A stretch of 32,000 bases of DNA from assembly GCA_001766815.1 (NCBI GenBank), contig LYOS01000001.1, positions 270,001-302,000 on the forward strand, written 5' to 3'. Under the pieces are notes generated by a model. That model had not been told where the DNA came from. It did not search any database and saw only the letters and a list, made by a program, of their open reading frames with translations. Numbering within the stretch: position 1 is the stretch's first letter; every line of letters starts with the position of its first letter. Below are positions 8,317 through 27,532 of the stretch, piece by piece. A program made the translations under genes and the position numbers. The DNA is from Candidatus Syntropharchaeum caldarium (lineage in GTDB: Archaea; Halobacteriota; Syntropharchaeia; Syntropharchaeales; Syntropharchaeaceae).

Positions 8317-8360
8317 AAAATAGATACGTTTAGAATTATGATAAGAGGTATGAGGTGCTG

Positions 8361-9575
8361 ATGATGCGAAAAGTTGGAAAGAATTTCATTATTATATCTG
8401 CTGTGCTTATATTGTTCATCACACAGTTCTCAGTAGCACTGGCAGAAGATACAAAGGTGAGTGTGAGTGCACCCGATGAGGTAAAGCCGGGTGATGTATT
8501 CAGTGCGTATATCATGATAGAGGATGTTACGGATTTTGTTGCAGGACAGTTTGATCTGAGCTTTGATTCGGATGTCATTACCGTGGTTGATGTTAAGAAC
8601 GGTGAGATAGAGAGTCAGGATGTTCCGATTCTTGCATGGAACTTCAAACCTGGAACTGATAACTATCTCAGGGTTGTATATGATCTTCCAGGTGCTGATG
8701 GTGTGAGTGGTTCAGGATATCTTGCAGAGATCATCTTTGAGGTTAAGGGTGCTGATGGGGATACAAGCAGCATAGAGATCTCAAATCTACAGCTCGGTAA
8801 CAAGAATGCAGAGGAGATTACAGCAGACTGGTCGAGCGGTGAAGTTAAGGTGGATGCCTCTGCAACACCCCAGCCAACAACAATTCAGGAGTCAACCTAT
8901 CAGGGAAGTTCTGGATATGCATTCAATGAAACTGAAACGAGCGGTGAGGCGACGATCACAACGAGTGAAAAAGTCACAAGATCGATTCCGGCTATTCAGG
9001 CAGGAACAAAGACCTCTGTTGTATTCAGTGATATGGATATCTCGATGATTACACTTGAGGTGGATCAGGATCTTTCCAATATTGAACTTTCGATGCAACC
9101 TCGGGATCTGCCCAGAGAGATACCTGAACCTGACGGAGTACTCTATAGCTCTTACGAGATAAAAGCAGAAGAGCTGGATGGAGTAGAAGTAACCGCAACG
9201 ATCGATTTCAGGGTTTTAAAGTCATGGATTGAAGAAAACAGTATAGATAAGGCAACGATCACGCTGAACCGCTATCACAATGGTAAGTGGCAGGAACTTC
9301 CAACTTTCATGGCAGGAGAAGATGAGAATTTTGTCAACTACCAGGCAGAGAGTACTGGTTTCTCGTACTTTGCGATAACAGGGGAGGTGGTTACCGGATC
9401 AGAGATGACACCTGCATCAAGGGATGCCACATCAACACCGATACCCACGACAACATCCCTCGAAGCAGAATCGACTGCTGGAACTGAGATAACGTGGGGT
9501 GTGATTATTGCAGCTATTCTTCTAACTGCTGTGATCTGTGCGGCAGTATTCATATTCCTCTCAAAGAGAAAGTAG
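8361..9575 (+). CDS. Membrane-anchored cohesin protein (signal peptide, one cohesin, PGF-pre-PGF-like domain, Thr-rich linker, C-terminal TM)
   Basis: The ORF-track entry begins at GTG 8355. ATG 8361/8364 behind the GAGGTG Shine-Dalgarno is the more likely start. Cohesin-like module at about 8445-8858 (GQFDLSFDSDVITVVDVKNGEI...LPGADGVSGSGYLAEIIFEVKGADGDTSSIEISN). Domain at about 8973-9387 ending ITLNRYHNGKWQELPT...ESTGFSYFAITGE, which from memory resembles the archaeal PGF-pre-PGF domain. C-terminus: STPIPTTTS...EITWGVIIAAILLTAVICAAVFIFLSKRK. Confidence 0.8.
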   Translation: MMRKVGKNFIIISAVLILFITQFSVALAEDTKVSVSAPDEVKPGDVFSAYIMIEDVTDFVAGQFDLSFDSDVITVVDVKNGEIESQDVPILAWNFKPGTDNYLRVVYDLPGADGVSGSGYLAEIIFEVKGADGDTSSIEISNLQLGNKNAEEITADWSSGEVKVDASATPQPTTIQESTYQGSSGYAFNETETSGEATITTSEKVTRSIPAIQAGTKTSVVFSDMDISMITLEVDQDLSNIELSMQPRDLPREIPEPDGVLYSSYEIKAEELDGVEVTATIDFRVLKSWIEENSIDKATITLNRYHNGKWQELPTFMAGEDENFVNYQAESTGFSYFAITGEVVTGSEMTPASRDATSTPIPTTTSLEAESTAGTEITWGVIIAAILLTAVICAAVFIFLSKRK

Positions 9576-9586
9576 AGTGGTGAGGG

Positions 9587-9625
9587 TTTTTTTTTGCTTT
9601 TTCTTTTTATTTTTTATTATATGTA
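9587..9625 (+). terminator. Oligo-T terminator region
   Basis: Directly after the TAG at 9575 there is a run of nine T followed by further T tracts (TTTTTTTTTGCTTTTTCTTTTTATTTTTTATTAT). Archaeal RNA polymerase terminates at oligo-T. Confidence 0.5.
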
Positions 9626-9691
9626 AACCCTGGTATTTTTAATGAGTATCTTATAATAGATAAAAATCAAAGACTTAATGTTACCAAATCC

Positions 9692-9706
9692 GAAAAGTTT
9701 ATTAAC
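9692..9706 (+). promoter_or_regulatory. Shared promoter cassette for the scaffoldin operon
   Basis: GAAAAGTTTATTAAC. TAAGAG starts exactly 26 nt after its last base, followed by a GGAGGAG Shine-Dalgarno (9741-9747) and the GTG at 9753. Confidence 0.5.
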
Positions 9707-9752
9707 TAATAAGTTGATTCGAAATACATTTTAAGAGTTAGGAGGAGTATAT

Positions 9753-11654
9753 GTGATAAAAGGTAAGATAGATGCAGTGGTGCTTGTGGCAGTTATGCTA
9801 CTTGCGCCAGTGGCGTATGCAGGTATGATGGGGAGCGTTGCAGCAACGAATATCCCAACAGTTACAGTCAGCGTGCCCGAGTATATCTCCGGAAGCTTCG
9901 AGGCAACGATCGAGGTGGAGGATGTTTCCAATCTCAACTCAGGGCAGTTTGACCTGACATTTGATCCGACCGTGATCAATGTGACAGATGTACTTGATGG
10001 TGAGATCGATGGTGTGACGATCCCGATCGATATGTGGGAGTTTATGAGTGATGATACGGTAAGGGTCCTCTTCAAGTTACCCGATGTTGATACTGCGAGT
10101 GGCTCAGGGTACCTTGCAAAGATCAGTTTCAAGGTGAAAGGGGAAGACGGTGATGCGAGCGAGCTTGAGATCTCAGAGGGATTGCTGGTTGACGTGGAGG
10201 CAGAAGATATCAACTCGGAATGGAATGATGCTGCGGTAACTGTTCTATGGCCGACGGTGCGTGTTAACACTCCCGAATATGTAACCACGAGCTTCGATAC
10301 CACAATCGAGGTGGAGGATATTTCTAATCTCAACTCAGGGCAGTTCGACCTGACATTTGATCCAGACGTGATCAATGTGACAGATGTACTTGATGGTGAG
10401 ATTGATGGCGTGACGATCCCGATCGATATGTGGGAGTTTATGAGTGATGATACGGTAAGGGTCCTCTTCAAGTTACCCGATGTTGATACTGCGAGTGGTT
10501 CAGGGTACCTTGCAAAGATAAACTTTGAGGTGAAAGGAGAGAATGGTGATACAAGTGAGCTTACAATCTCAGAGGGATTGCTGGTAGACTATGATGGGGA
10601 GGGAATGGATGCAAACTGGAATGGCGCTGCACTCACCGTTGCAATGGGTCCCTCAGTAACGATCAACGCTCCAGCAGCAGCATCAGATAGCTTTGAGGTT
10701 CAGGTCGAGATAGATGATGTGGAAGATCTCGATGCAGCCCAGTTTGATCTGAGCTTTGATCCGAATCTGCTCGCGGTTACATCCGTAAGCGATGGTGAGA
10801 TAGATGGTGAAGCTGTACCTGTTAAAAAGTGGAGCCTCGACCCGGCTGATCCAGGCAAACTCAGGGTGGTTCTCGATCTTCCAGGCGTTAAAGGTGTGAG
10901 CGGTTCAGGTGTGCTTGCAAGAATCGGTTTCGATCCTGTAGGGGATGGTGTGAGCGAGCTTGTACTCGATAATGTGACGCTGGGCGATATCAATGCAGAT
11001 GATATCAAAGGGGTACGGCTTGAAAGCTCAACAGTGGAGGTTACTCTACCCAGACCCGGTGGAACGGTCATATCAATCAGTGATATTGCAGCCATAGGGA
11101 CGATCACAGTACCGATTACAATCGAGAACGCCACGAATGTCGGCTCATGCGATCTGACTTTGAGTTATGATCCTACGATCGTTATCGTATCAGATGTTGG
11201 GGGAGGTGAGTTCGATAGCCTTCAGGCAAACCTTGAGGATGCATCTGATGGTATCATCCGAATCGGTACATACCAGACATCAAGCCCGGGCCTCAATGGC
11301 GACGTCGTACTTGCAGAGGTTACCCTCATGACAATGGGTGATATAGAGTCATCCACCACGCTTGATCTTGAGGTTACAACCCTGAAAGACGCAACGCCCG
11401 AATGCAACCCAATTCCATGCCTTGTCGAGGATGGAAGCTTCACCGTGCTTTTGAAGGGTGATGCAAACGGTGATGGCAGGATAGATATGGCAGATTGTAT
11501 GTATCTTGCGAAGAATATCCTGGGTATCAGCGGTTTTGAGCAAATCGTTGAGGCGGCTGTGGATGTCAACGGTGACGGTGAGATCGATATGGCAGATTGC
11601 ATGTATCTCGCAAAACACATCCTCGATATTGCTGGGTTTGAGGAGCTTAAGTGA
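9753..11654 (+). CDS. Secreted scaffoldin-like protein: four cohesin modules plus a C-terminal canonical dockerin
   Basis: 633 aa with a signal peptide. Modules 1 and 2 (about 9855-10250 and 10251-10646) are near-identical. Module 3 (about 10647-11036) is related to them; all three share the hallmark [SA][GA]QFDL[ST]FDP...DGEIDG...SGSG.LA.I.F. Module 4 (about 11037-11440) belongs to a different class (NVGSCDLTLSYDP...LKDATPECNPIP). The C-terminus (11454-11651) has two dockerin repeats: GDANGDGRIDMADCMYLAKNILGI and VDVNGDGEIDMADCMYLAKHILDI. Confidence 0.85.
   Translation: MIKGKIDAVVLVAVMLLAPVAYAGMMGSVAATNIPTVTVSVPEYISGSFEATIEVEDVSNLNSGQFDLTFDPTVINVTDVLDGEIDGVTIPIDMWEFMSDDTVRVLFKLPDVDTASGSGYLAKISFKVKGEDGDASELEISEGLLVDVEAEDINSEWNDAAVTVLWPTVRVNTPEYVTTSFDTTIEVEDISNLNSGQFDLTFDPDVINVTDVLDGEIDGVTIPIDMWEFMSDDTVRVLFKLPDVDTASGSGYLAKINFEVKGENGDTSELTISEGLLVDYDGEGMDANWNGAALTVAMGPSVTINAPAAASDSFEVQVEIDDVEDLDAAQFDLSFDPNLLAVTSVSDGEIDGEAVPVKKWSLDPADPGKLRVVLDLPGVKGVSGSGVLARIGFDPVGDGVSELVLDNVTLGDINADDIKGVRLESSTVEVTLPRPGGTVISISDIAAIGTITVPITIENATNVGSCDLTLSYDPTIVIVSDVGGGEFDSLQANLEDASDGIIRIGTYQTSSPGLNGDVVLAEVTLMTMGDIESSTTLDLEVTTLKDATPECNPIPCLVEDGSFTVLLKGDANGDGRIDMADCMYLAKNILGISGFEQIVEAAVDVNGDGEIDMADCMYLAKHILDIAGFEELK
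9855..10646 (+). repeat. Tandem 396-bp (132-codon) duplication: cohesin modules 1 and 2
   Basis: ATCGAGGTGGAGGAT occurs at 9909 and 10305, an offset of 396 nt. By eye there are about 9 mismatches over the next 215 nt or so, including a perfectly identical run of about 89 nt (GTGACGATCCCGATCGATATGTGGGAG...GATACTGCGAGTGG). Confidence 0.85.
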
Positions 11655-11661
11655 GGTGGTT

Positions 11662-12816
11662 ATGAAGATAGTAGCTTTCCTGTTTGCTATCTGCCTGCTG
11701 GGGTTATCTATAGGCACGGTGGCATCAGCAGGTGAGTGCAGGGTTGTGGTGGAAGATCTCAGAGTGACATCAGAGACTGTTAATATTCCTGTGAGGATTA
11801 TGGACGCAGAGAAGATCGGTTCATGTGACCTGATTCTCACCTTCAACCCATCCTCCTTCATTGTAACAGATATCACAGCAGGGGATTTTGATACGACCAT
11901 CTGGAACCTTGAGACTGCAAACTCAGGTCAGGTGAGAATCGGTGGATTCCAGACCACAAGCGATGGACTTGATGGAGAAGTTCTCGTTGCGACGATCGTC
12001 TTCGAGCGTGTGGGGGGAGACTCAACTCCAATCAACATTCAGGTTAAAACCCTGAAGGATGCAACACCTGCCTGCAATCCGATCCCCTATACGATCGAGA
12101 ACGGGAGACTATTCACAGGAGGATCCGACTACATCGGAAGCAGAGGGTACGGAGATCTTCCCATCTCAACCCACAGCATCAATACGACAGAGGTTACAAG
12201 ACGGATTCCCCTGATCGAGGCTGGCAGGGAAGCTTCTGTGATCTTCAGGGATATGGTAATCTCGATGATAACGATCCTGACAGAAGAGGATCTGAGGGAT
12301 ATTGCACTATCTCTTCAGGAGTTTGATGGAAAGCCACCTGTTACATCTACTCCTGATGCTATTCCCTATGCCTACTTTGAGATAGAAGCGGATGGCTTGA
12401 ACACAGCAGACGTAAAGGCAGGGATCAGTTTCAGGGTTCCACAGTCATGGATCTATGAGAACAAAATCGATGCGCAAACGATCACGTTGAACCAATACAA
12501 TGGCGGATGGATCTCGCTTCCAACTGTCAGGATCGATGACGATGATGAGTTTATTACATTCAAATCAGAGACGAGTGAGTTCTCCTACTTTGTGATAACA
12601 GGTGAGAGGATGGAATCAACTGGACAGGTTGAATCATCAACTGAGATTGACAGAAGCAATACAGTAACTTCCAGGCCAACACCGATGACAGGCGAGGCGG
12701 GGGCAACTCCTGCACAGCCAGCATCTTTGAGCTGGAGCTATGTGCTCCTTGCTGTAATCGGAACGATACTTGTATGTGGAGCGATATTCCTTGCGATCTC
12801 AAGAAGGAGGAGATAA
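11662..12816 (+). CDS. Membrane-anchored cohesin protein, second class (signal peptide, one cohesin, PGF-pre-PGF-like domain, C-terminal TM)
   Basis: The ORF-track entry 11506..12816 is trimmed to ATG 11662 (MKIVAFLFAICLLGLSIGTVASA), which has a GAGGTGG Shine-Dalgarno and lies 7 nt after the scaffoldin stop. The cohesin (about 11731-12115: KIGSCDLILTFNPSS...LKDATPACNPIP) matches scaffoldin module 4. The domain at about 12190-12606 (ITLNQYNGGWISLPT...ETSEFSYFVITGE) parallels the one in 8361..9575. C-terminus: SLSWSYVLLAVIGTILVCGAIFLAISRRRR. Confidence 0.8.
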   Translation: MKIVAFLFAICLLGLSIGTVASAGECRVVVEDLRVTSETVNIPVRIMDAEKIGSCDLILTFNPSSFIVTDITAGDFDTTIWNLETANSGQVRIGGFQTTSDGLDGEVLVATIVFERVGGDSTPINIQVKTLKDATPACNPIPYTIENGRLFTGGSDYIGSRGYGDLPISTHSINTTEVTRRIPLIEAGREASVIFRDMVISMITILTEEDLRDIALSLQEFDGKPPVTSTPDAIPYAYFEIEADGLNTADVKAGISFRVPQSWIYENKIDAQTITLNQYNGGWISLPTVRIDDDDEFITFKSETSEFSYFVITGERMESTGQVESSTEIDRSNTVTSRPTPMTGEAGATPAQPASLSWSYVLLAVIGTILVCGAIFLAISRRRR

Positions 12817-12822
12817 AACGAT

Positions 12823-12845
12823 CCGGGCGGAATCCCGGTTTTTAT
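12823..12845 (+). terminator. Hairpin plus T-tract after the cohesin operon
   Basis: CCGGG (12823-12827) pairs with CCCGG (12834-12838) around a 6-nt loop, followed by TTTTTATTT. Confidence 0.45.
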
Positions 12846-12876
12846 TTAATTTGAATGAAGTAAGGAGGTATGGCGA

Positions 12877-13139
12877 ATGAATCTGAATAAGATTGGTAGT
12901 TTAGCGATGGCAACTTTGATAGTCCTTGCGTCTGTTACGCTTCTGAGCATTGTGCCAGTATCGGCATCAGATGATTTCACATTGGGCATCTATGGCAATG
13001 CAAACCAGGATGATACAATCGATATGCGGGATGTCACAAAGATCGCACGGATGATCTGCTGGCTCGAGGATGAGGTGGATTTAGCAGATGCAAAGTACGA
13101 TGGGAATATAAATGTGCTTGATATAATCCAGACCGAGCT
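12877..13139 (+). repeat. Signal-peptide plus dockerin cassette, copy 1 (subtype 1)
   Basis: I count 6 mismatches in 263 nt against 18902-19164. Similarity ends abruptly after GAGCT, where the binding-protein domains begin. Confidence 0.9.
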
Positions 13140-14157
13140 GACCATTCTGCGGAGAGATAAAACTCTGACGGTAATCGATGATACCGGAGAGGCAGTAACA
13201 CTATCCAAGCCGGTAGAGAGCTTTGTGTATCATGGACATAACTCATACGTCTATGAAACACTGCGTGCAATCGGTGTAGCAGACAAGATCGTTGGTACCA
13301 GCGATCGATTCGTCACACCAGGCAAGTGCAGATATAGCGAGGCTTATTACCCCGAGCTCTGTGGTTTTACGAATGTTGGCATACTTAAATCACCTGACTA
13401 CGAAGTGGTAAACACGCTGAGACCGGATCTCGTGATTAGCGATGCAGAGGAGTACTACGACCGTACAAAGACGCCAGACATTCCTGTTATAGCCCTAGAT
13501 GTGAGACTTTCAAACTTCAGAGAGGCAACGATGAAATTCGGGTACATCTTCGATAGCGTGGAGAAGGCAGAGGAGTACATCAACTGGTATGACGGTTGGG
13601 AAGAAACGGTCAATGAGAAAGTCGAAACGATTTCAGATGATGAGAAGCCGCTGGTACTCATCTGTTACTACAAGCCAGGTACAACGTCATTCTCGATACC
13701 TGTCAGGGACCATTACAGAAGCGTGATGGTTCATGCAGCAGGAGGGAAATGCGTGGGAGATGAATTTGATGGTACGGGCTACGTTAAGGTAGATGCCGAA
13801 TGGGTGATAGACCGAAATCCAGATGTCATCATATTTTCAGGGGCAAACCAGTATGTCGGATATGATATCGAGGATCCATCAGATGCAATCGCACTGATAA
13901 ATGACTTCACAAGCCAACCTGAGCTTGCTGAGGTCAATGCGGTAAAGAACAACAGGGTGTATCTGGTAAGTCATTCGTTTATCCTTTGTGGGGGTGCAAG
14001 CGGTCTCATAGGCACGGTATACTACGCAAAATGGATGTATCCTGAGCTTTTCGCAGATATGGATGCACAGGAGATGCAGCAGGAGTTCGTGACAGACTTT
14101 CAGCATCTGGATCTGAATGTAGAGAACTGCTACTGTGTATATCCACCACCGGCCTGA
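12877..14157 (+). CDS. FecB/BtuF-type (iron-chelate/corrinoid class) ABC substrate-binding protein with an N-terminal dockerin
   Basis: 426 aa. Signal peptide ending VPVSA/SDD with no lipobox Cys. Dockerin at about 12991-13149 with two Ca-loop repeats (NANQDDTIDMRD..., DAKYDGNINVLD...). The remainder resembles the periplasmic-binding-protein type 2 fold (TLTVIDDTGEAVTLSKPVESFV..., RPDLVIS, DRNPDVIIFSG). An FecCD permease and an ATPase follow directly. Confidence 0.85.
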   Translation: MNLNKIGSLAMATLIVLASVTLLSIVPVSASDDFTLGIYGNANQDDTIDMRDVTKIARMICWLEDEVDLADAKYDGNINVLDIIQTELTILRRDKTLTVIDDTGEAVTLSKPVESFVYHGHNSYVYETLRAIGVADKIVGTSDRFVTPGKCRYSEAYYPELCGFTNVGILKSPDYEVVNTLRPDLVISDAEEYYDRTKTPDIPVIALDVRLSNFREATMKFGYIFDSVEKAEEYINWYDGWEETVNEKVETISDDEKPLVLICYYKPGTTSFSIPVRDHYRSVMVHAAGGKCVGDEFDGTGYVKVDAEWVIDRNPDVIIFSGANQYVGYDIEDPSDAIALINDFTSQPELAEVNAVKNNRVYLVSHSFILCGGASGLIGTVYYAKWMYPELFADMDAQEMQQEFVTDFQHLDLNVENCYCVYPPPA

Positions 14158-14161
14158 AGCT

Positions 14162-15238
14162 ATGAGTGCAGCAGAGATAACCGTGACGGATAGCGGTGCC
14201 CAGGAGGAATATAAAAAGTACATCGGGAGGAAGATTACATTTATCCTTTCCTCCTTCCTTCTTTTAATTCTCATCTTTGGCATATCCGCATCACTTGGAT
14301 CGGCAGATATAACGATATGGGATGCGTATGCTGCATTTCTTCATAGATTTTTCCCGGATCACTTCCATACAAGCTGGCTTGCAGATACATGCGTCTGGAA
14401 TCTGAGGCTTCCTCGCATCATGCTTGGCATCATCGCCGGTACCGGTCTTGCGATAGCAGGATCTGTGATGCAGGGGGTACTCAAGAATCCTCTTGCAAGT
14501 CCCTATACGCTTGGGATTTCAGCAGGTGCCGGTTTTGGCGCATCTCTTGCTATAATCGCAGGCGCAGGTTTTGTTGGAGGGGAGTATCTCATAATAGGAA
14601 ATGCTTTTGTCTTTGCAATCTTATGTTCATTCATCATCATCGGTTTTGCAAGCAGAAGAGGGGCGACACCTGAGACGATGATCCTTGCAGGTATCGCAAT
14701 TCTCTATATATTCTCTGCATCCACAACACTACTCCAGTACTTTGGCGAGGAGGAGGCTGTGGCACAATCGGTATTCTGGATGGTTGGTGATCTTGACAGG
14801 GCATCGTGGGGCAATGTAACGATGGCTGGTATCGTGGTTGCAGCCTGTGTCCCTTTACTTATGATAAAATCATGGGATCTCAATGCGCTGACTGCTGGTG
14901 ATGAGGCAGCACAGAGTATGGGTGTAAATGTTAAGCGTGTCAGAGTATTTACCATGCTGCTTGTAAGCCTTCTCGTTGCCAGCATCGTCTGCTTCACAGG
15001 TACGATCGGTTTCATAGGGCTTGTTGCACCGCATATAACGCGCATTGCCATTGGGGGGGATAATAGATTTTTACTTCCGGCATCAGGTCTGGCGGGTGCA
15101 GTGTTACTTGTTGGAGCGGATATCGTAGCAAGAAGAATTATTGCACCGGTTATTATCCCTGTGGGCGCGATTACAGCCTTTATGGGGGGTCCCCTGTTTT
15201 TGTATCTTATAATGAGAATGAGGAGGGAGTACTTTTGA
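14162..15238 (+). CDS. FecCD/BtuC-family ABC permease
   Basis: Polytopic membrane protein with the family-typical C-terminus GADIVARRIIAPVIIPVGAITAFMGGPLFLYLI. The start is trimmed to ATG 14162, 4 nt after the binding-protein stop. The ORF-track start 14135 would overlap that gene. Confidence 0.85.
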   Translation: MSAAEITVTDSGAQEEYKKYIGRKITFILSSFLLLILIFGISASLGSADITIWDAYAAFLHRFFPDHFHTSWLADTCVWNLRLPRIMLGIIAGTGLAIAGSVMQGVLKNPLASPYTLGISAGAGFGASLAIIAGAGFVGGEYLIIGNAFVFAILCSFIIIGFASRRGATPETMILAGIAILYIFSASTTLLQYFGEEEAVAQSVFWMVGDLDRASWGNVTMAGIVVAACVPLLMIKSWDLNALTAGDEAAQSMGVNVKRVRVFTMLLVSLLVASIVCFTGTIGFIGLVAPHITRIAIGGDNRFLLPASGLAGAVLLVGADIVARRIIAPVIIPVGAITAFMGGPLFLYLIMRMRREYF

Positions 15239-16008
15239 AACTTAAAGTAAACAATGTTGAATTCAGCTATAATAGCACGCCAGTTCTTGAAGATGTATCT
15301 ATGGAACTGGATCGATCAGAGATGCTCGGGATCGTTGGTCCGAATGGTGCTGGCAAATCCACGCTGATCCGGTGTATAGATAGGATCTTAAAGCCAACAC
15401 AGGGGAGCATTCATCTTGACGGGCAGGAAATAGAGGAGATGGGCATGATGGAGATCGCAAGGCACATCGGATATGTGCCGCAGAGTTATTCTGGTGTGTT
15501 TCCAGCAACGGTCTTTGATACGGTTCTTGTGGGCAGGCGCCCTCACATCGGATGGCGGAGCAGTGAATCAGACGAAGATAAGGTATGGGCGATACTGAAG
15601 ATGATGGGAATCGAGGATCTCGCCATGCGGGACTGGAGCGAGCTCAGCGGTGGTCAACAGCAGAAGGTGTTGATTGCAAGAGCGCTTGCCCAGGAGGCGG
15701 GCACGCTCTTACTCGATGAGCCCACTTCAAACCTTGACATAAGACACCAGATCGAGGTGATGGAAATCCTGAAGGATCTCGTGGAGAAAAAGGGGATCTC
15801 AGCGATAATGGCAGTCCATGACCTGAACCTTGCATCAAGATACACGGATCGTGTGATCATCATGAAAAACGGCAGAATATTTGACGCAGGCAGTCCCCTG
15901 GATGTCCTCACGCCTGAGAATATCAGATCGGTCTATGGCGTCGAGGTTGAGGTGGTCAACAGTAGCAGTGGAAAGCCACATATCGTGCCTGTGAGGTCTG
16001 TAACATAG
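15235..16008 (+). CDS. ABC ATPase, iron-chelate/cobalamin (FepC/BtuD) type
   Basis: Walker A GPNGAGKST, signature LSGGQQQK, Walker B LLLDEPTSNLD. The TTG start overlaps the permease stop (TTGA at 15235-15238), with an AGGAGGGA Shine-Dalgarno upstream. Confidence 0.9.
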   Translation: MKLKVNNVEFSYNSTPVLEDVSMELDRSEMLGIVGPNGAGKSTLIRCIDRILKPTQGSIHLDGQEIEEMGMMEIARHIGYVPQSYSGVFPATVFDTVLVGRRPHIGWRSSESDEDKVWAILKMMGIEDLAMRDWSELSGGQQQKVLIARALAQEAGTLLLDEPTSNLDIRHQIEVMEILKDLVEKKGISAIMAVHDLNLASRYTDRVIIMKNGRIFDAGSPLDVLTPENIRSVYGVEVEVVNSSSGKPHIVPVRSVT

Positions 16009-16044
16009 AAATGGGTCTGAGAGAATATCTGGGGGAAGTGAATC

Positions 16045-18837: not shown

Positions 18838-18852
18838 AAAAACTTTATTAAT
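18838..18852 (+). promoter_or_regulatory. Shared promoter cassette for the second SBP block
   Basis: Exact AAAAACTTTATTAAT. TAAGAGG starts exactly 26 nt after its last base, followed by a GGAGG Shine-Dalgarno and the ATG at 18902. Confidence 0.55.
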
Positions 18853-18901
18853 TAAGAATCCAATTCAATCACAATCTTAAGAGGAATGGAGGCTTTATTG
18901 A

Positions 18902-19164
18902 ATGAATCTGAATAAGATTGGTAGTTTAGCGATGGCAACTTTGATAGTCCTTGCGTCTGTTACGCTTCTGAGCATTGTGCCAGTATCGGCATCAGGTGAC
19001 TTCACATTGGGCATCTATGGCAATGCAAACCAGGATGATACGATCGATATGCGGGATGTCACAAAGATCGCACGGATGATCTGCTGGCTCGAGGATGAGG
19101 TGGAGTTAGCAGATGCGAAGTACGATGGGAATATAAATGTGCTTGATATAATCCAGACTGAGCT
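18902..19164 (+). repeat. Signal-peptide plus dockerin cassette, copy 2 (subtype 1)
   Basis: Near-identical to 12877-13139 (6 mismatches counted by eye). Confidence 0.9.
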
Positions 19165-20208: not shown

Positions 20209-21948
20209 ATGAATCTGAATAAGATTGGTGGTTTGGCGATGGTAACTTTGATGGTGCTATCGATTCTACTGCCATTTACAGTTATGCCCGCGTCTGCAAC
20301 ACTCTTCGGTGATGCGAACACTGATACAACGATCGATATGCGGGATGTGACAAAGATCGCACGGATGATCTGCTGGCTCGATCCAGAGACAGACGCTGCA
20401 GATGCAAATAACGATGGATCTGTGAATGTGCTTGATATAATTTATACAGAGCTTATCATCCTTGAACGAGTGCCGTTTCCAGGTGGTGAACTCAGGGCAG
20501 CGATGATATTTGGGCCCAAAAGTGATTCACTCGATCCAGCTTACTCGTGGACAGGATGGTATGTGAGAAAAGCCGGGATTTACGAGACACTCTTCAGCTA
20601 TGACGAGAATATGAGACTTCAAGATGAGCTTGCAACAGGTTACAGCCAGATCAGCGATACCGAGTGGAGGATATACCTGCGAGACGGTGTCAGGTTCCAT
20701 GACGGCACACCACTAAACGCTGATGCCGTGATCTACTCCCTTGAGCGGGTGATGGATCCTTCAAACAGCAGGCACACACAGTACGACTTTATTGAGTCTG
20801 TATCAAAGTTTGATGAACACACGGTGACAATCATAACAAAAGAACCTTATGCCCCAACGATCGCAAGTTTGACAGATCCTGTGGTCTCGATCGTGAGTCC
20901 CGCGGCAAACGATCTCGCTCATAACCCTGTAGGTACAGGTCCGTTCAAGTTTGTCGACCATGAACAGGGTGTGAGTTTAACTGTTACAAGAAACGATGAC
21001 TACTGGGGTGGGGCTGTCAAGCTCGAGGGTGCGATCTTCTACTATGTGAGCGATCCATTGACAAGGTCACTCATGCTCGAGGGTGATGATGTCGATATCG
21101 CACGGGGTATACCACAGAGTGAGTACAATGAGATCGAGGATGATCCCGATCTCGAGGTTCTGACCAAAGAGACGCTTCGGACCTACTTCATGTATGTGAA
21201 TACGAGGAAAGCACCGCTTGATGATGTGAGGGTTAGACAGGCTATAAACTATTGCATCGATCGTGAAGAGATCGTTGATACAGCACTTGAAGGTGTCGGT
21301 GGCACGCCTACAAAGAGTGTCTTCCCATCGATTTTACCATGGTCTGCAAATGACGAGCTGGAGGGATACACGTTCAATCAGGCAGAAGCACTATCGCTAC
21401 TTGAAGCGGCTGGTATTACAGACACCGATGGCGATGGCTGGCTTGATTATAATGGTGAGACCTTTGAGCTTACGATAAAGACCTACACCAAGCGACCTGA
21501 GCTCCAGCCAACTGCTGAAGTGATGGTGAGCCAGCTTGAGGATATCGGGATCAAGGCAAGTGTGATTATCCTTGAAACAGGTGCTCTGAAGGCTGATATG
21601 AATGACGGTAACTTCGATCTTGCGCTCTATGCATGGGGTACCGCCCCGACAGGAGATCCGGACTACTTCCTCTCGTACCACTTTGAGTCAACAGGAAAGT
21701 ATGCGGGATGGACAGGTTATTCAAACCCTGATGTGGATAACTGGATAGAGCTTGGACGGAGAACGATGAACGAGGACGATCGATATGAGTACTATGCCAA
21801 TGTACAGGAGCAGATACTCGAGGACTCGCCAGAGATCTTTGTATTCTATCAGAACGAACTTGTAGGAGAGAATACACGGGTAATCGGCTATGAGATATTC
21901 CCGAACGAGATATCTTTCCTGACAAAGGATGTGTACATTGGAAAATAG
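20209..21948 (+). CDS. Family-5 (NikA/DppA/OppA-type) ABC substrate-binding protein with an N-terminal dockerin
   Basis: 579 aa. The signal peptide starts with the same MNLNKIGxLAM. Dockerin at about 20305-20469 (DANTDTTIDMRD..., DANNDGSVNVLD...). A typical family-5 core follows (LRDGVRFHDGTPLNADAVIYSLERV, NPVGTGPFKF). AAGGAGG Shine-Dalgarno upstream. Confidence 0.85.
   Translation: MNLNKIGGLAMVTLMVLSILLPFTVMPASATLFGDANTDTTIDMRDVTKIARMICWLDPETDAADANNDGSVNVLDIIYTELIILERVPFPGGELRAAMIFGPKSDSLDPAYSWTGWYVRKAGIYETLFSYDENMRLQDELATGYSQISDTEWRIYLRDGVRFHDGTPLNADAVIYSLERVMDPSNSRHTQYDFIESVSKFDEHTVTIITKEPYAPTIASLTDPVVSIVSPAANDLAHNPVGTGPFKFVDHEQGVSLTVTRNDDYWGGAVKLEGAIFYYVSDPLTRSLMLEGDDVDIARGIPQSEYNEIEDDPDLEVLTKETLRTYFMYVNTRKAPLDDVRVRQAINYCIDREEIVDTALEGVGGTPTKSVFPSILPWSANDELEGYTFNQAEALSLLEAAGITDTDGDGWLDYNGETFELTIKTYTKRPELQPTAEVMVSQLEDIGIKASVIILETGALKADMNDGNFDLALYAWGTAPTGDPDYFLSYHFESTGKYAGWTGYSNPDVDNWIELGRRTMNEDDRYEYYANVQEQILEDSPEIFVFYQNELVGENTRVIGYEIFPNEISFLTKDVYIGK
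20305..20469 (+). repeat. Dockerin cassette, subtype 2, N-terminal copy
   Basis: Shares an identical 53-nt run (ATCGATATGCGGGATGTGACAAAGATCGCACGGATGATCTGCTGGCTCGATCC, from 20332) with 27389 onward, plus further similarity up to the ...TACAGAGCTTATCAT end. Confidence 0.85.
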
Positions 21949-21964: not shown

Positions 21965-22000
21965 AGAGCAAAATGGCTTTATGCAGAGCTGTTTTGCTTT
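21965..22000 (+). terminator. Possible hairpin/attenuator after the SBP gene
   Basis: AGAGCAAAA (21965-21973) can pair with TTTTGCTTT (21992-22000), including one G:U pair, around a loop of about 18 nt (16 nt if the flanking T:G wobble also pairs). ACCATTTTTATTTAAT follows. The T/A-rich tail could instead be a TATA box for the next gene. Confidence 0.3.
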
Positions 22001-22034
22001 ACCATTTTTATTTAATCTTCAATCTGGTGTTCTT

Positions 22035-22790
22035 ATGGACGTAAAAGGTGTTATTGCAGACTACTGGGATAAAAGAAGCCATACATACCACAACGATTTA
22101 AATAAGCTTCGGGCAGATGAGCATTCGATCTGGGTGGGTGCACTTAAAGATGTCTTGAATGGTGGTGAGCATCTGAAGATACTCGATCTCGGAACAGGTC
22201 CTGGTTTTCTGGCACTGATCCTTGCAGAGATAGGACATGAGGTGACAGGTCTTGATATCTCGGAAGGCATGCTTGAGAAAGCGAGATACAATGCCAGAGC
22301 AAGAAATTTAATGATAGATTTCTGCCTGGCTGATGCAGAGAACCTTCCGTTTCAGGATGAAGACTTTGACCTTGTTGTGAGTAAATACCTCCTCTGGACG
22401 TTACCGCATCCGGAAAGAGCGGTGGACGAATGGAACCGTGTATTAAAACCGGGTGGTAAGGTTGTTTTAATCGATGGGGTCTGGTTTGATCCCGCCATAA
22501 ATAGGTGGCTTCGCCGCAACCTCTCAACCCTTCTTGCAATCGTTACTGAACGGAGAAATCCATGGAGATTTAAACGGTACTATAACCCGATAAAAGATAG
22601 ACTGCCGTTTTACAGCGGTGTGAAACCTCACGAACTTTACACCCTCTTCAATGAGGCTGGGCTTACAAATGTATCACTCAAACCCCTGAGCGAGGTGCAG
22701 GAATTTTATATGAACTGTGGATCGCTGTCTCGAAAGATAATACATAAAGAACCAAACTTTATTTTAACAGGTGAAAAAATAAGGTGTTAG
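22035..22790 (+). CDS. Class I SAM-dependent methyltransferase (paralog 3)
   Basis: The ORF-track entry 21981 is trimmed to ATG 22035 (MDVKGVIADYWDKRSHTY...), which aligns with the N-termini of paralogs 1 and 2 (IKEYWD / IKDYWN). ILDLGTGPGFLALILAEIGHEVTGLDISEGML, ADAENLPFQDEDFDLVVS, WNRVLKPGGKV. Its TAG stop abuts the permease ATG at 22791. Confidence 0.8.
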   Translation: MDVKGVIADYWDKRSHTYHNDLNKLRADEHSIWVGALKDVLNGGEHLKILDLGTGPGFLALILAEIGHEVTGLDISEGMLEKARYNARARNLMIDFCLADAENLPFQDEDFDLVVSKYLLWTLPHPERAVDEWNRVLKPGGKVVLIDGVWFDPAINRWLRRNLSTLLAIVTERRNPWRFKRYYNPIKDRLPFYSGVKPHELYTLFNEAGLTNVSLKPLSEVQEFYMNCGSLSRKIIHKEPNFILTGEKIRC

Positions 22791-23738
22791 ATGCTGTGGT
22801 ATATACTTAGAAGAGTCCTGCTCCTTCTTCCTACCCTGTTTTTAGTATCTATCATCAGCTTCTCTCTGATATACATAACTCCTGGGGATCCTGCAGAGAT
22901 ACTTCTAACAGGTCCGGGAGGGGGAGCAGATCCGAAAGCTGTCGAGGAGTTCAGGGTCAGGATGGGGCTTGATCAACCTTTCTATATCCAATACCTGAGA
23001 TGGCTAAATGACGTTCTGCATGGAGACTTTGGATATTCCTATATGACAGATCAGCCTGTAGCCGATACGGTTTTTGATAGTTTTCTCTCCACCCTGAAGC
23101 TTGCAGCGGTGAGTATGGTGATAGCACTTCTTATCGCAATTCCATTCGGTATCCTCGCCGCGATGAAGCACAACACGATAATAGACGATCTTAGCAGGTT
23201 GACAGCACTTATTGGTGTCTCTATCCCGAATTTCTGGCAGGGCTTTCTCCTTATTCTGATATTCTCCATATATCTTGGCTGGTTTCCGGTTGCAGGATAC
23301 GGCGATGGAGGAGATCTTAAACATATAATCCTGCCTGCAGTTACACTTGGAACAAGCTCTGCCGCGGTTACGATGAGATTGATGCGATCAAGCATGTTTG
23401 AGGCACTGGAACAGGATTACATAATAACTGCCAGGGCAAAAGGGTTACATGAGAGGGTTGTTATTGGAAAACATGCGTTAAAAAATGCGTTAATTCCGGT
23501 TGTAACGATGATAGGTTTGAACGCTGGATTTCTCCTGAATGGATCTCCGATCATTGAGGTGATATTCGCCTGGCCTGGAATCGGAAGACTTGTTGTATCC
23601 TCAATATACCAGCGAGATTATCCGATGATACAGGGCTCGATTCTCTTTGTTGCGATCATATTTCTTACTGTAAATTTTATTGTCGATATATTATACACAT
23701 ACATAAATCCGAGGATAAGATATGAGGCAGGTGATTAG
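22791..23738 (+). CDS. ABC permease, DppB/NikB/OppB type
   Basis: 315 aa. The N-terminus MLWYILRRVLLLLPTLFLVSIISFSLIYITPGDP and the motif ARAKGLHERVVIGKHALKNALIPVVT are typical of this family. Confidence 0.9.
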   Translation: MLWYILRRVLLLLPTLFLVSIISFSLIYITPGDPAEILLTGPGGGADPKAVEEFRVRMGLDQPFYIQYLRWLNDVLHGDFGYSYMTDQPVADTVFDSFLSTLKLAAVSMVIALLIAIPFGILAAMKHNTIIDDLSRLTALIGVSIPNFWQGFLLILIFSIYLGWFPVAGYGDGGDLKHIILPAVTLGTSSAAVTMRLMRSSMFEALEQDYIITARAKGLHERVVIGKHALKNALIPVVTMIGLNAGFLLNGSPIIEVIFAWPGIGRLVVSSIYQRDYPMIQGSILFVAIIFLTVNFIVDILYTYINPRIRYEAGD

Positions 23739-24552
23739 GAATCCAGGCATCCTCTTTGGAACTGCTGTAATCGTCTTTCTAATCTTTGTAGCCGTATTTG
23801 CAGGTTTTATCGCACCCCACGATCCAACAGAGACACATCTGAAAGATAGGTTGAGTTCACCATCATCAAAATATCCGCTTGGGACTGATCATCTTGGCAG
23901 GTGTATCTTAAGCAGAATCATCTATGGCACAAGGATCTCGCTTTCTGTTGGTGTTCTTGTGATAGGTGCATCGCTTCTTCTCGGGCTTCTTCTTGGTACG
24001 ATTGCAGGCTACTATGGTGGGATAATCGATGATCTGATCATGCGCATCGTCGATGGATTTCTGGCGTTCCCGAGTATGTTTCTTGCACTGGCTATAGCCG
24101 GCGCTCTTGGGCCCAGTCTGACCAATTTAATGATCGCACTCATCGTTGTGGAGTGGACAAGCTATGCGAGGGTTGTGAGGGGTTCTATACTTTCTATAAA
24201 AGATCAGATGTTTGTAGAGGCTGCAAGAGGACTTGGTGCAGGGGATATTTATCTTCTTACCCGTCACGTCCTTCCAAACATTCTCTCACCACTTATCGTG
24301 ATGGCAACGCTCGGGGTTGGCTACATCATACTCACAGCAGCGGGCTTGAGCTTCTTAGGATTGGGTGTACAGCCACCAACGCCAGAATGGGGGGCGATGT
24401 TGAATGACGGGCGCCTCTTCATGCGAAGTGCACCGCATATCATGATCTTTCCAGGGCTTGCAATAATGATAACGGTTCTTGCTTTCAACTTCCTTGGAGA
24501 CGGGCTGAGGGATGTGATGGATCCAAGGTTGAAGCAGGAAGTGATAGAATAG
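23722..24552 (+). CDS. ABC permease, DppC/NikC/OppC type
   Basis: 276 aa. FIAPHDP, PLGTDHLGRCILSRIIYGTRISL and VEAARGLGAGDIYLLTRHVLPNILSPLIV. Overlaps the preceding permease gene by 17 nt. No ATPase gene follows. Confidence 0.9.
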   Translation: MRQVIRNPGILFGTAVIVFLIFVAVFAGFIAPHDPTETHLKDRLSSPSSKYPLGTDHLGRCILSRIIYGTRISLSVGVLVIGASLLLGLLLGTIAGYYGGIIDDLIMRIVDGFLAFPSMFLALAIAGALGPSLTNLMIALIVVEWTSYARVVRGSILSIKDQMFVEAARGLGAGDIYLLTRHVLPNILSPLIVMATLGVGYIILTAAGLSFLGLGVQPPTPEWGAMLNDGRLFMRSAPHIMIFPGLAIMITVLAFNFLGDGLRDVMDPRLKQEVIE

Positions 24553-24583
24553 ATTGAATAGTAGCATTTGGTAATACTAAAAC

Positions 24584-24645: not shown

Positions 24646-25404
24646 ATGAAGATCCTGATATGCGGTAAGGGCGGCAGTGGAAAGAGCACCGTATCAGCGC
24701 TTCTTGCAAGATCGATGGCAGGAAGGGGGAGAAAGGTTCTTGTGATCGATACGGATGAGTCAAACTTCGGACTGCATAGACAGCTTGGGATGGAACTCCC
24801 CCCTGACTTCATGAACCGCTTTGGTGGAAAGCAGGCGATGACCGAGAGGCTGAGAGAAGCGTTTCGTAGGGGTGAAGCGGTCAACGTCTTTGATCAGAAG
24901 TGGGAAGTTGATTCCATACCTGATGATTACATCCATACAAAGGACGGGGTAAAGTTGCTGGCGATCGGTAAGATCCATGACTTTGGTGAGGGATGTGCCT
25001 GCCCGATGGGTGCACTTTCGCGTGAGTTTCTCAAAAATCTTGAACTTAAAGACGATGAGGTTGTGATCGTTGACACCGATGCCGGGATCGAGCATTTTGG
25101 GAGGGGTGTGGAGGATGGGTGTGACCTGATCATCGTTGTTGTGGATCCATCCTATGAATCGCTCAAGCTCTCTCTAAAGATAGAGGAGTTAGCGGTCAGT
25201 ATCAAAAGACCTGTCTATTTCATTCTCAACAAAATTGACGATGAGAGCAGGGGCATAATGCTCGAATCATTGAATCAAGAGAGAGTTGCAGGAGAGATTC
25301 CATCAAACCGCGAGATCTTCAAAGCCTCCCTTGAGGGAAGAGAGCTTGATATGCGACTGGATGAGATTGAATCGCTCGTGGATAAGCTAAGTATGGAAAC
25401 ATGA
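24646..25404 (+). CDS. cooC: CooC-type (MinD/ParA-class) P-loop ATPase, putative nickel-insertion accessory protein
   Basis: Deviant Walker A ICGKGGSGKST, the Cys-x-Cys metal-bridging motif GEGCACPMG, and DTDAGIEHFGRG. The size of about 250 aa and these motifs match CO-dehydrogenase maturation factor CooC. Confidence 0.75.
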   Translation: MKILICGKGGSGKSTVSALLARSMAGRGRKVLVIDTDESNFGLHRQLGMELPPDFMNRFGGKQAMTERLREAFRRGEAVNVFDQKWEVDSIPDDYIHTKDGVKLLAIGKIHDFGEGCACPMGALSREFLKNLELKDDEVVIVDTDAGIEHFGRGVEDGCDLIIVVVDPSYESLKLSLKIEELAVSIKRPVYFILNKIDDESRGIMLESLNQERVAGEIPSNREIFKASLEGRELDMRLDEIESLVDKLSMET

Positions 25405-25787
25405 TTGTTATCAATATCCCATCCATCGATCTTGTGGATGCGGTTATGATCTGCTCAAAGAATTATCCAAAAGATGTGGATGAGTTTGAGGAGGCTAAAC
25501 TTACGGTCAGAGAATCAGAGAAGGTTAAAGCTCCATCTATCGCAGAATGCATCGGATGGATGGAGTGTGTTCTGGAAAAGGAAGTGGTTGAAGAGGGGAA
25601 ATATGCGATCATCATCGGAAAGGTGGTGTATCTCGAGGTGGATGATCAGTACCTCACAGTAGATGGTGCTATCGACCTTGAGAAGGCGAGGCCGCTCTCA
25701 ATGATGCCTGGGAAGGATGGAATGCAGTACACATATCCCAGGCCAATCGGAGAGGAGCGGCGTTATGCCGAGATGTCTATAAAGTAA
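25401..25787 (+). CDS. Flavin-reductase-like domain protein, apparently N-terminally truncated
   Basis: 128 aa with an ATGA overlap with cooC. EKVKAPSIAECIGWMECVLEKEVVEEGKYAIIIGKVVYLEVDDQYL...IDLEKARPL resembles only the C-terminal half of the FMN-binding split-barrel flavin reductase domain. No room exists upstream for the missing half. Confidence 0.45.
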   Translation: MIVINIPSIDLVDAVMICSKNYPKDVDEFEEAKLTVRESEKVKAPSIAECIGWMECVLEKEVVEEGKYAIIIGKVVYLEVDDQYLTVDGAIDLEKARPLSMMPGKDGMQYTYPRPIGEERRYAEMSIK

Positions 25788-25801
25788 GGAGGCTGTAAAG
25801 A

Positions 25802-27532
25802 ATGAGAAAATTGCTGGTCTTTCTGATGCTGGCAGCACTTCTTGCAAGTGGGTTTGCAGGGATGCCGGCAGCAGCAGAAGATAAGAAGGTCTTGAAGATC
25901 GAAGGAGGAGATTACGGTTACCCATCCCCCTTCACATTCTATTCAAGAGGTCCGGGGTACATCAGGATGAGCCTCATCTTCGATACCTTGACATGGAAGG
26001 ATGATGAGGAGATAATACCGTGGCTTGCAAAGAGCTGGAAGTCTGAGAATGGCGGTATGAAATGGACGCTGTATCTCGAGGATGATGTGAGGTGGCATGA
26101 TGGCGAGCCGCTAACGGCAGATGATGTGAAGTTCACATACGAGTATATCAAGGATCATAGTGGAACCCCTCTCTTCAAATGGTTCAGTGTCCTGAACTAT
26201 ATGGATCATGTGGAGGCTCCCAATGATCGAACGGTTGTTGTAACCTTAACAGATCCGTTGCCATCCTTCTTGACCGACTTTGCTGGCTGCATCCCGATAA
26301 TTCCGGAGCACATCTGGAAGGATGTTTCAGATCCAACCAGATTCACAGATCCGGAAGCGGTTATCGGAAGTGGACCTTTCAAGCTTGCTGAGTACAACAA
26401 GGCTGAAGGTTACTACCTCTATGAGGCAAATGAGGACTACTTCAAGGGAGTGCCCCTCGTTGATGAGCTAATCCTCCTTGAGGTGGGTGATCCCGCACTT
26501 GCACTAAGCGCCGGGGAGATCGATGAGGCGAGCTTCTGGGGTAGTGAGATTGATGCGGTTGAGACGTTTGAAGCGGATCCGAACTTTGAGGTGATATCTG
26601 GTCCAAGTTTCTGGGTGCTGAAGACGATCTTCAACTGCGAGAAGTACCCGACAAATATACCGGATTTCAGAAGAGCAATAGCATACGGGATAGACAGGGG
26701 TGAAATCATCGATCAGGTGGTGCACGGTGGTGCGATAGTCGCAAACACAGGTATTCTTCATCCGGACTCAAGCTGGTATATGCCAGGCCTTCCGGATTAT
26801 GCGAAGAATGATGCAGTGGCAAATCAACTCCTCGATGATCTTGGCTTCATAGATACAGATGGTGATGGTATAAGAGAGTATCCATCTGGTGAAGATCTTG
26901 AGTTTGAGCTTTTGACAGGAGACAGGTTCGCACGTGAGGCAGAACTTATACAGGAGCAGCTTGAAGCGATCGGGATAAAGACGACCGTCAAGGCGATGAG
27001 TACAAAGACGCTTGACGCTATCCTCAAGGAGGGTAACTTCTACATTGCGGTATCAGGACATGGAGGGGTCGCAAATCCAAACCTGCTGGAGACACCAAAC
27101 TGGCCAGGGGACACGTATCATAACGACAGTTACGATTCGATCTTTCTGGAGCAGGAGACTGAGATGAACCATGCAAAGCGAAAGGATCTTGTGAATCAAC
27201 TGCAGGAAACGATCGCAAACGATTTACCTGTCTACACACTCTACCATCCGTTGATGTGGTCTGTTTACAATCCGGATAAGCTTGACAGGTGGTTCTATAC
27301 ACTGGATGGCGTCGCAACGGGCATACCGATTGAGATGAACAAGCTCATATTCTTTGCAAGGTTTGGCGATGCAAACGAGGACGGTGATATCGATATGCGG
27401 GATGTGACAAAGATCGCACGGATGATCTGCTGGCTCGATCCTGAGGCAGACGCTGCAGATGCGAACCGTGATGATAAGCTTAATGTGCTTGATATAATCT
27501 ATACAGAGCTTATCATACTTGGAAGGGTATAG
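25802..27532 (+). CDS. Family-5 (NikA/DppA/OppA-type) ABC substrate-binding protein with a C-terminal dockerin
   Basis: 576 aa. Signal peptide MRKLLVFLMLAALLASGFAGMPAAA with no Cys. Family-5 core (LEDDVRWHDGEPLTADDVKFTYEYI, IGSGPFKLAEY). The last 56 aa or so (27362-27529) are a dockerin: GDANEDGDIDMRDVTKIARMICWLDPEADAADANRDDKLNVLDIIYTELIILGRV. AAGGAGG Shine-Dalgarno upstream. Confidence 0.85.
   Translation: MRKLLVFLMLAALLASGFAGMPAAAEDKKVLKIEGGDYGYPSPFTFYSRGPGYIRMSLIFDTLTWKDDEEIIPWLAKSWKSENGGMKWTLYLEDDVRWHDGEPLTADDVKFTYEYIKDHSGTPLFKWFSVLNYMDHVEAPNDRTVVVTLTDPLPSFLTDFAGCIPIIPEHIWKDVSDPTRFTDPEAVIGSGPFKLAEYNKAEGYYLYEANEDYFKGVPLVDELILLEVGDPALALSAGEIDEASFWGSEIDAVETFEADPNFEVISGPSFWVLKTIFNCEKYPTNIPDFRRAIAYGIDRGEIIDQVVHGGAIVANTGILHPDSSWYMPGLPDYAKNDAVANQLLDDLGFIDTDGDGIREYPSGEDLEFELLTGDRFAREAELIQEQLEAIGIKTTVKAMSTKTLDAILKEGNFYIAVSGHGGVANPNLLETPNWPGDTYHNDSYDSIFLEQETEMNHAKRKDLVNQLQETIANDLPVYTLYHPLMWSVYNPDKLDRWFYTLDGVATGIPIEMNKLIFFARFGDANEDGDIDMRDVTKIARMICWLDPEADAADANRDDKLNVLDIIYTELIILGRV
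27362..27529 (+). repeat. Dockerin cassette, subtype 2, C-terminal copy
   Basis: Shares the 53-nt identical run with 20332 onward. The same module that is N-terminal in three other SBPs sits here at the extreme C-terminus. Confidence 0.85.

Follow-up and report, generated by a model that had tools for sequence, protein, structure and literature searches.

A 32,000-nucleotide stretch of the genome of the alkane-oxidising archaeon Candidatus Syntropharchaeum caldarium (contig LYOS01000001.1, positions 270,001 to 302,000 of the forward strand; hereafter the window, whose own numbering is used below) was analyzed for a system in which the receptors of ATP-binding cassette (ABC) importers appear to be displayed at the cell surface through a non-covalent tether of cohesin and dockerin modules. 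Three adjacent genes, G1 to G3, encode six cohesins, and the four substrate-binding proteins (SBPs) encoded downstream, SBP1 to SBP4, each carry a dockerin. A sequence-only reading of the window had proposed that the SBPs are docked on a membrane-anchored scaffold. Comparison with other genomes supports this proposal, and we consider tethering to be the best explanation of the sequence evidence and probably the right one. The cohesins fall into two sequence classes, A and B, and the features that bear on the tether are the following.

8355/8361 to 9575, + strand: anchor protein G1 (published annotation with the ATG start at 8361); signal peptide, class-A cohesin at amino acids (aa) 34-166 (nucleotides (nt) 8454-8852), PGF-pre-PGF domain at aa 228-343, then a Ser/Thr/Pro-rich stalk, a transmembrane helix at aa ~377-400 and a KRK tail.
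9753 to 11654, + strand: scaffoldin G2; signal peptide, four cohesins and a C-terminal dockerin, without membrane anchor.
9852 to 10250, 10251 to 10649 and 10650 to 11048, + strand: class-A cohesins 1, 2 and 3 of G2.
11061 to 11438, + strand: class-B cohesin 4 of G2.
11448 to 11651, + strand: dockerin of G2, C-terminal and internally symmetric.
11662 to 12816, + strand: second anchor protein G3, with a G1-like architecture; signal peptide, class-B cohesin at aa 25-152 (nt 11734-12117), PGF-pre-PGF domain at aa 187-314, then a stalk, a transmembrane helix and an RRRR tail, as judged from hydropathy.
12877 to 14157, + strand: SBP1; signal peptide, dockerin at aa 37-93 (nt 12985-13155), Peripla_BP_2 core (PF01497, E 5e-23).
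18902 to 20167, + strand: SBP2; signal peptide, dockerin (nt 19010-19180), Peripla_BP_2 core (PF01497, E 5e-26).
20209 to 21948, + strand: SBP3; signal peptide, dockerin (nt 20299-20469), NikA/Opp-type SBP_bac_5 core (PF00496, E 3e-95).
25802 to 27532, + strand: SBP4; signal peptide, SBP_bac_5 core (PF00496, E 9e-77), C-terminal dockerin (nt 27356-27529).

The six cohesin modules over three consecutive genes, first read from the letters of the window, were recovered at the same coordinates by the open reading frame (ORF) listing together with Pfam and NCBIfam searches. All three proteins exceeded the Pfam cut-off for Cohesin (PF00963, 24.1 bits), G1 with 50 bits (E 4.7e-13), G2 with 141 bits over four Cohesin stretches (E 2.8e-41) and G3 with 26 bits, slightly over the cut-off. 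Pfam and hydropathy analysis also agreed with the earlier division into two proteins with one cohesin and a membrane anchor (G1 and G3) and one protein with four cohesins and a dockerin (G2). The hydropathy maximum of G1 was 3.11 at aa 375-388, the PGF-pre-PGF model TIGR04213 of NCBIfam matched G1 (E 1e-24) and G3 (E 4e-23), and the G2 dockerin scored 54 bits (E 1.9e-12) against Dockerin_1 (PF00404), for which the cut-off is 22.9 bits. An AlphaFold2 model of G2 was composed of four beta-sandwiches with a predicted local distance difference test (pLDDT) of ~80-95 for modules 1-3 and 70-80 for module 4; a Foldseek search with this model returned the cohesin dyad 3l8q as best match, and also 2xdh (TMt 0.79) and 6kgc. 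As in a cellulosome, a scaffoldin with several cohesins is found together with an anchoring tier, here G1 and G3 in the membrane. Cohesins 1 and 2 of G2 represent a recent tandem duplication (88% nucleotide identity, window 9876-10571), and a G2 orthologue in another Syntrophoarchaeum assembly has three cohesins only, in 499 aa. An exact search for G2 in the contig collection gave no hit.

The second element of the system is the module carried by the SBPs. Every SBP of the three importer loci had been credited with a two-repeat dockerin, a claim that alignment, profile comparison and the SBP2 model sustained. Profile searches recovered the expected Cohesin (G1-G3), Peripla_BP_2 and SBP_bac_5 domains, as well as Dockerin_1 for G2 and SBP3; the modules of SBP1, SBP2 and SBP4 did not reach the Dockerin_1 cut-off. 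The SBP3 dockerin passed it with 23.8 bits in the whole protein and 27.4 bits as an isolated segment, and the three sub-cut-off modules are 69-84% identical to it. When aligned, the four modules and the G2 dockerin were in register and shared the D/N positions of the calcium loops (hhalign probability 94%), and the top matches of their joint profile in the Protein Data Bank were nearly all dockerins, type I first. The AlphaFold2 model of SBP2 (pLDDT 92) contained a confident dockerin module, in which residues 37-95 formed two loop-helix units (pLDDT 83-98, helices 50-60 and 80-91), that is, the two tandem segments of an EF-hand-like calcium loop followed by a helix that define a dockerin. A full HMMER search with the SBP-dockerin profile collected 983 clusters at E<=1e-3, and 22 of the 27 non-SBP members that were scanned matched Dockerin_1 at E<=1e-3; this search replaced a word-index search, which gave seven short fragments with the 60-aa dockerin profile. 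On these alignments, profiles and the model, we accept all four SBP modules as dockerins of one subtype.

These dockerins are far more alike than the proteins that carry them. They share 69-95% identity with one another (95% for SBP1 and SBP2, 84% for SBP4 and SBP3), whereas identity among the SBP cores is 30-36% inside each fold family, and cores of different families are unrelated. Such near-identical dockerins on divergent cores point to selection for one partner shared by all four. In the DNA of the window, the segment that codes for the dockerin is present in four copies of 76-93% nucleotide identity, and SBP1, SBP2 and SBP3 also have the ribosome-binding site and the signal-peptide region in common at the DNA level.

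No lipobox cysteine was present in any of the four SBPs, and hydropathy analysis detected no hydrophobic segment past the N-terminal signal peptide, in line with what the sequence-only reading had said of their anchorless state. Their dockerins likewise lie where they had been placed, after the signal peptide in SBP1-SBP3 and at the C-terminus in SBP4. An AXA-type site with small residues at -3/-1, identified by eye, ends the signal peptide in all seven proteins. SBP1 and SBP2 weakly matched the NCBIfam model TIGR04281, which describes PGF-CTERM-anchored SBPs. Profile searches of the major ORFs of the window revealed no carbohydrate-binding module and, as had been noted before, no glycoside hydrolase. 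We therefore rejected the identification of this locus as a cellulosome, given that the window holds no degradative enzyme: it would work like a cellulosome and is not one.

To place these genes in a wider context, an alignment-based scan of species-representative genomes was performed, which returned 211 relatives of the dockerin-SBPs. From these, 73 loci (L006-L078) were retained, originating from Syntrophoarchaeum, from the anaerobic methanotrophic archaea (ANME) ANME-1, ANME-2c with other Methanosarcinales assemblies, and ANME-3, from Candidatus (Ca.) Argoarchaeum and Ca. Ethanoperedens, and from the bacterium Desulfospira joergensenii. A cohesin ORF was present in 28 of the 73 loci. Two of these were set aside, one being the contig of another locus (L006, identical to L002) and the other containing an SBP without detected dockerin (L023). 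The cohesin gene lay at most 300 bp from a dockerin-SBP gene of the same strand in 22 of the remaining 26 loci, and upstream of it in 21 of the 22. These independent loci come from ~18 genomes of ANME-1, ANME-2, ANME-3, GoM-Arc1 and one bacterium, so that the adjacency for which a survey of related genomes had been advised was encountered in 22 further loci. A minimal form recurs, in which a protein of ~190-250 aa has a single class-A cohesin between its signal peptide and a C-terminal transmembrane helix, with at least one dockerin-SBP gene downstream. Syntenic loci were found in two other Syntrophoarchaeum-type assemblies (L001 and L002), one of them with a three-cohesin scaffoldin, and scaffoldin genes adjoin dockerin-SBP genes in ANME-2 and ANME-2c contigs. 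In an ANME-1 contig (CONS3730B06UFb1, L048 3497-17523), the genes of a scaffoldin with four cohesins and of a protein with one cohesin precede seven same-strand paralogues of the dockerin-Peripla_BP_2 type. Six of these form an unbroken run and the last lies ~2 kb further downstream; such a number of receptors far exceeds the need of any one permease.

Cohesins and dockerins also vary together. Over 23 loci, the distances between adjacent cohesins correlated with those between the neighbouring dockerins (r 0.78), and a partial Mantel test controlling for SBP-core distance gave r 0.66 (permutation p ~2e-4). Among the 150 best dockerin clusters at 50% identity, 110 were Peripla_BP_2-like and 2 SBP_bac_5-like, which indicates that this dockerin subtype is largely specific to SBPs. 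Among the 119 nearest homologues found for the SBP2 core, 113 have this dockerin. We considered a restriction of the dockerin-SBP fusion to syntrophic alkane oxidisers and rejected it, the dockerin being found also on Peripla_BP_2 homologues from Methanothrix, Methanocrinis, Methanosuratincola and Desulfuromonadales (P0331, P0392, P0401).

A minimal arrangement was that of Desulfospira joergensenii DSM 10085 (L077, NZ_ATUG01000002.1 1651693-1672850, operon at locus coordinates 5007-13004). The genes follow one another in the order TonB-dependent receptor, methyltransferase, single cohesin with a transmembrane anchor, two dockerin-SBPs, FecCD permease and ATPase. The cohesin thus lies inside a complete uptake operon of the iron-chelate type, which links it to transport. 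The occurrence of this minimal system in a cultured diderm suggests a transfer between domains.

The two cohesin classes of the window differ in their distribution. Class A comprises the cohesin of G1 and cohesins 1-3 of G2, with 37-80% mutual identity; class B comprises cohesin 4 of G2 and the cohesin of G3, a pair with 42% mutual identity and 20-30% identity to class A. The closest solved structure to the class-B cohesins by sequence is 2xdh, a cohesin of Archaeoglobus fulgidus (E 2.2e-3 and 3.2e-3). Mean identity to 78 cohesin domains that other lineages encode next to dockerin-SBP genes was 40-49% for the window's cohesins of class A and ~25% for those of class B. The dockerins also form two classes, that of G2 being 36-39% identical to the SBP-type dockerins. 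In the fetched loci, neither the class-B cohesin nor the G2-type dockerin was met without the other, and both were confined to Syntrophoarchaeum-type loci, a restriction that fits a lineage-specific second tier.

The SBP genes belong to three ABC importer loci, namely SBP1 with a FecCD permease and an ATPase, SBP2 and SBP3 with OppB and OppC, and SBP4 with OppBCDF. Their partner genes are as follows.

14135 to 15238 and 15235 to 16008, + strand: FecCD permease and ABC ATPase, partners of SBP1 (Pfam FecCD, E 1e-89; ABC_tran, E 7e-36).
22791 to 24552, + strand: OppB-like and OppC-like permeases 3' of SBP3 (Pfam BPD_transp_1, OppC_N).
27586 to 31100, + strand: OppB, OppC, OppD and OppF, partners of SBP4 (Pfam).

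The core of SBP2, to which no permease gene is adjacent, matched the iron-chelate SBPs YiuA, FepB and TroA-like proteins when its model was searched with Foldseek. SBP2 is 100% identical to a protein of Ca. Syntrophoarchaeum caldarius. The best NCBIfam match of SBP3 was Opp5A_nikA; the NikA equivalog models scored under their cut-offs, and nickel is therefore not established as its ligand. ATPase genes are lacking from the SBP3 locus, which consists of SBP3, OppB and OppC.

Several other genes lie around these loci. A 6,025-bp block (window 12875-18900) contains SBP1, the FecCD permease, the ATPase, two methyltransferases and a Gate-domain membrane protein. Its two borders are direct repeats of 300 nt with 92% identity, formed by the 5' ends of SBP1 and SBP2. 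This block is missing from a syntenic Syntrophoarchaeum sp. contig, in which G3 is directly followed by the SBP2 orthologue, and it looks like an insertion or a duplication that would have occurred via the shared dockerin-coding sequence. Genes for class-I S-adenosylmethionine (SAM) methyltransferases are interspersed among the uptake loci (window 16045-16854, 16851-17633, 21981-22790 and 31097-31918), and methyltransferase-like ORFs were present in 25 of 81 fetched loci. Along its whole length, the last of the four shares 47% identity with the one just 5' of the cohesin in the Desulfospira operon (L077 7037-7891), and precedes a further dockerin-Peripla_BP_2 gene (LYOS01000001.1 302050-303336) listed in a published table. 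Between the two Opp-type loci are a gene for a CooC/CbiA-like P-loop ATPase and a truncated flavin-reductase-like gene (window 24646-25787). Divergent from G1, a gene on the - strand (window 5918-8209) encodes a secreted 763-aa protein with a C-terminal transmembrane helix and a weak match to S-layer glycoproteins (NF041431, E 7e-14), and its position is kept in L001 and L002.

From these data, the following organization may be proposed. All seven proteins would be exported through Sec signal peptides, and G1 and G3 would be kept in the cytoplasmic membrane by their C-terminal helix, while the PGF-pre-PGF domain and the Ser/Thr/Pro-rich stalk of each would hold one cohesin off the membrane. 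The dockerin of the SBPs would stand in for a covalent anchor and retain them between the membrane and the S-layer. This shared dockerin is predicted to bind the class-A cohesins, one on G1 and three on the soluble G2, and the dockerin of G2 itself to dock to G3, at its class-B cohesin; cohesin 4 of a second G2 molecule might be a further partner for this dockerin, and chains could then form. Metal-chelate and nickel/peptide-type receptors would as a result be clustered near their permeases at a high local concentration, for which metal capture would be a possible purpose. The binding of the modules to one another, their choice of partners and the benefit for uptake are what we infer here from sequence.

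The assignment of partners might also be the reverse, with the SBP dockerins bound to class B (G3 and cohesin 4 of G2) and the G2 dockerin to class A. G2 molecules would then form a branched network and carry a single SBP each. The gene immediately 5' of SBP1, at a gap of 60 bp, is indeed the class-B gene G3, as would be expected from the general order of a cohesin followed by an SBP. However, outside Syntrophoarchaeum no class-B cohesin was found beside SBP-type dockerins in the fetched loci, where the neighbours are of class A, and we regard reverse pairing as rather unlikely. A more distant possibility, to which we give a small chance, is that the network serves adhesion or partner recognition, building an intercellular matrix or contacts with a sulfate-reducing partner, with SBP-like proteins in an adhesive or sensing role. 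Such roles have been proposed for cohesin and dockerin proteins of ANME and of sulfate-reducing bacteria, which are highly expressed in consortia (PMC5244752; PMC10553843), and would be in keeping with the S-layer-like protein gene divergent from and upstream of G1 and with the dockerins of the SBP subtype that are borne by some Ig, PKD, cadherin or SLH proteins. On the other hand, genes for FecCD or Opp permeases and for ATPases accompany the SBP genes of the window in operon-like arrays, the Desulfospira operon encodes an entire uptake system, the modelled SBP2 core keeps an intact YiuA/FepB-like fold, and SBPs account for 112 of the 150 best dockerin clusters.

The remaining alternatives concern the way in which the SBPs are retained. 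If their N-terminal segment were left uncleaved, it could itself anchor them, and the dockerins would merely gather or regulate them. A hydrophobic stretch of ~20 residues is present at the N-terminus of every SBP, and cleavage was judged by eye from the AXA motifs; small residues nevertheless occupy -3/-1 in all seven proteins, and SBP4 begins with a short signal peptide of the classic kind and has its dockerin at the opposite end of the chain, which makes an uncleaved anchor improbable. Alternatively, the SBPs could be released to the matrix as soluble scavengers and return loaded to the cohesins, in the manner of hemophores. The absence of a permease gene next to SBP2 would suit such a shuttle, as would the extended series of dockerin-SBP paralogues (seven in L048) that many lineages encode along with few permeases. 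The affinities of characterised cohesin-dockerin pairs, however, are nanomolar or tighter and speak for a permanent attachment, and the sequences bear no sign of regulated release; we consider this explanation very improbable.

The tethering of SBPs on a membrane-anchored scaffold has nonetheless to be weighed against several observations. As isolated segments, the dockerins of SBP4, SBP2 and SBP1 scored 20.7, 16.8 and 15.4 bits, below the cut-off of 22.9, and those of SBP1 and SBP2 have a lysine at position 3 of calcium loop 2. The pLDDT of the G2 dockerin was below 50 for the greater part of the module (residues 567-611 and 628-633), so that the AlphaFold2 model is uninformative on docking and cohesin preference. 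The cohesin gene directly 5' of SBP1 is that of G3, of class B and not of class A. The frequency of dockerins in the fetched loci is biased by a retrieval pattern that contained the dockerin motif, shared ancestry can inflate a Mantel correlation, and in a Methanothrix harundinacea-type contig (L079 8001-9236) the dockerin-SBP gene stands alone, without cohesin or permease neighbour. A receptor held on a long scaffold must still reach its permease, and the geometry that we describe is a proposal. Finally, we found in the literature no experimental binding test of these modules and no experimental test of the tethering of dockerin-SBPs.

Cohesins and dockerins were reportedly first noticed in Archaeoglobus in 1999, and their role outside cellulose degradation has been a question ever since. 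The pattern described here and the core idea of tethering are already published as genomic inference (PMC9012536; PMC13452462). In its account of ANME archaea, the study of Chadwick et al. (2022, PLoS Biol, PMC9012536) reports scaffoldin-like proteins in which a single dockerin is combined with as many as five cohesins, and gives the SBPs of NikA/OppA-type and TroA-type ABC transporters as common dockerin-bearing proteins. The locus of the window belongs with these systems, having both a protein with multiple cohesins and a dockerin, and dockerin-bearing SBPs of the NikA/Opp and TroA types. The main text of that study, by contrast, deals with ANME and not with Syntrophoarchaeum, and its account of these proteins states nothing on gene clustering, on cohesin and dockerin classes or on the replacement of an anchor. 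G1 (LYOS01000001.1 278361-279575), G2, G3 and SBP3 are tabulated in its S4 Data, at their window coordinates plus 270,000; SBP1, SBP2 and SBP4 are not, probably because they fall below standard thresholds, and published counts of dockerin-bearing SBPs may be underestimates. The same study refers to A. fulgidus cohesin-dockerin pairs shown to bind (PMC9012536, its references 167 and 168). The A. fulgidus cohesin 2xdh is the archaeal structure that best matches class B by sequence, but with an E of only ~2e-3, and neither an SBP cargo nor a multi-cohesin scaffoldin is reported for it.

The type I/type II cellulosome of Clostridium thermocellum offers a close architectural parallel, with its cargo bearing one type of dockerin and its multi-cohesin scaffoldin bearing a dockerin of another specificity class, which in the system of the window would plug into a cell-bound anchoring cohesin. 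The cargo here consists of ABC-transporter receptors and not of glycoside hydrolases, carbohydrate-binding modules are lacking, and anchoring relies on a C-terminal transmembrane helix instead of SLH domains or sortase. The problem of keeping a receptor near its permease without an outer membrane is also that of lipoprotein SBPs, of PGF-CTERM-anchored SBPs (TIGR04281) and of the permease-fused substrate-binding domains (SBDs) of GlnPQ and OpuA. Importers with several fused SBDs raise the local receptor concentration. Unlike these covalent tethers, the one proposed here would be a non-covalent plug, multivalent and common to unrelated folds.

To the published pattern, our analysis adds three uncatalogued dockerins (SBP1, SBP2 and SBP4), the conserved order of a cohesin followed by a dockerin-SBP, the signal of cohesin/dockerin co-variation and, as deduced from the sequences, a two-tier assignment of classes. 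It also adds a cultured organism, Desulfospira joergensenii DSM 10085, in which the tethering idea is testable. Together with this minimal operon, the set of six cohesins and five dockerins of the window makes the hypothesis directly testable.

A bolder extension, which we think unlikely, would see in the cohesin-dockerin pair a general, exchangeable plug for the ABC-importer receptors of anaerobes. A single scaffold would take dozens of paralogous receptors, scaffoldin molecules, joined by way of their class-B cohesin and their dockerin, would build up an antenna of many receptors that harvests metals in the space from membrane to S-layer, and the plug would operate in the diderm periplasm as well. 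If true, this would be the first defined physiological role for non-cellulosomal cohesins and dockerins. The tethering of SBPs as such, if true, would explain much of the large cohesin and dockerin inventory of methane- and alkane-oxidising archaea, and would imply a heavy investment of these organisms in the capture of scarce nickel, cobalt and iron for their cofactor-rich metabolism.

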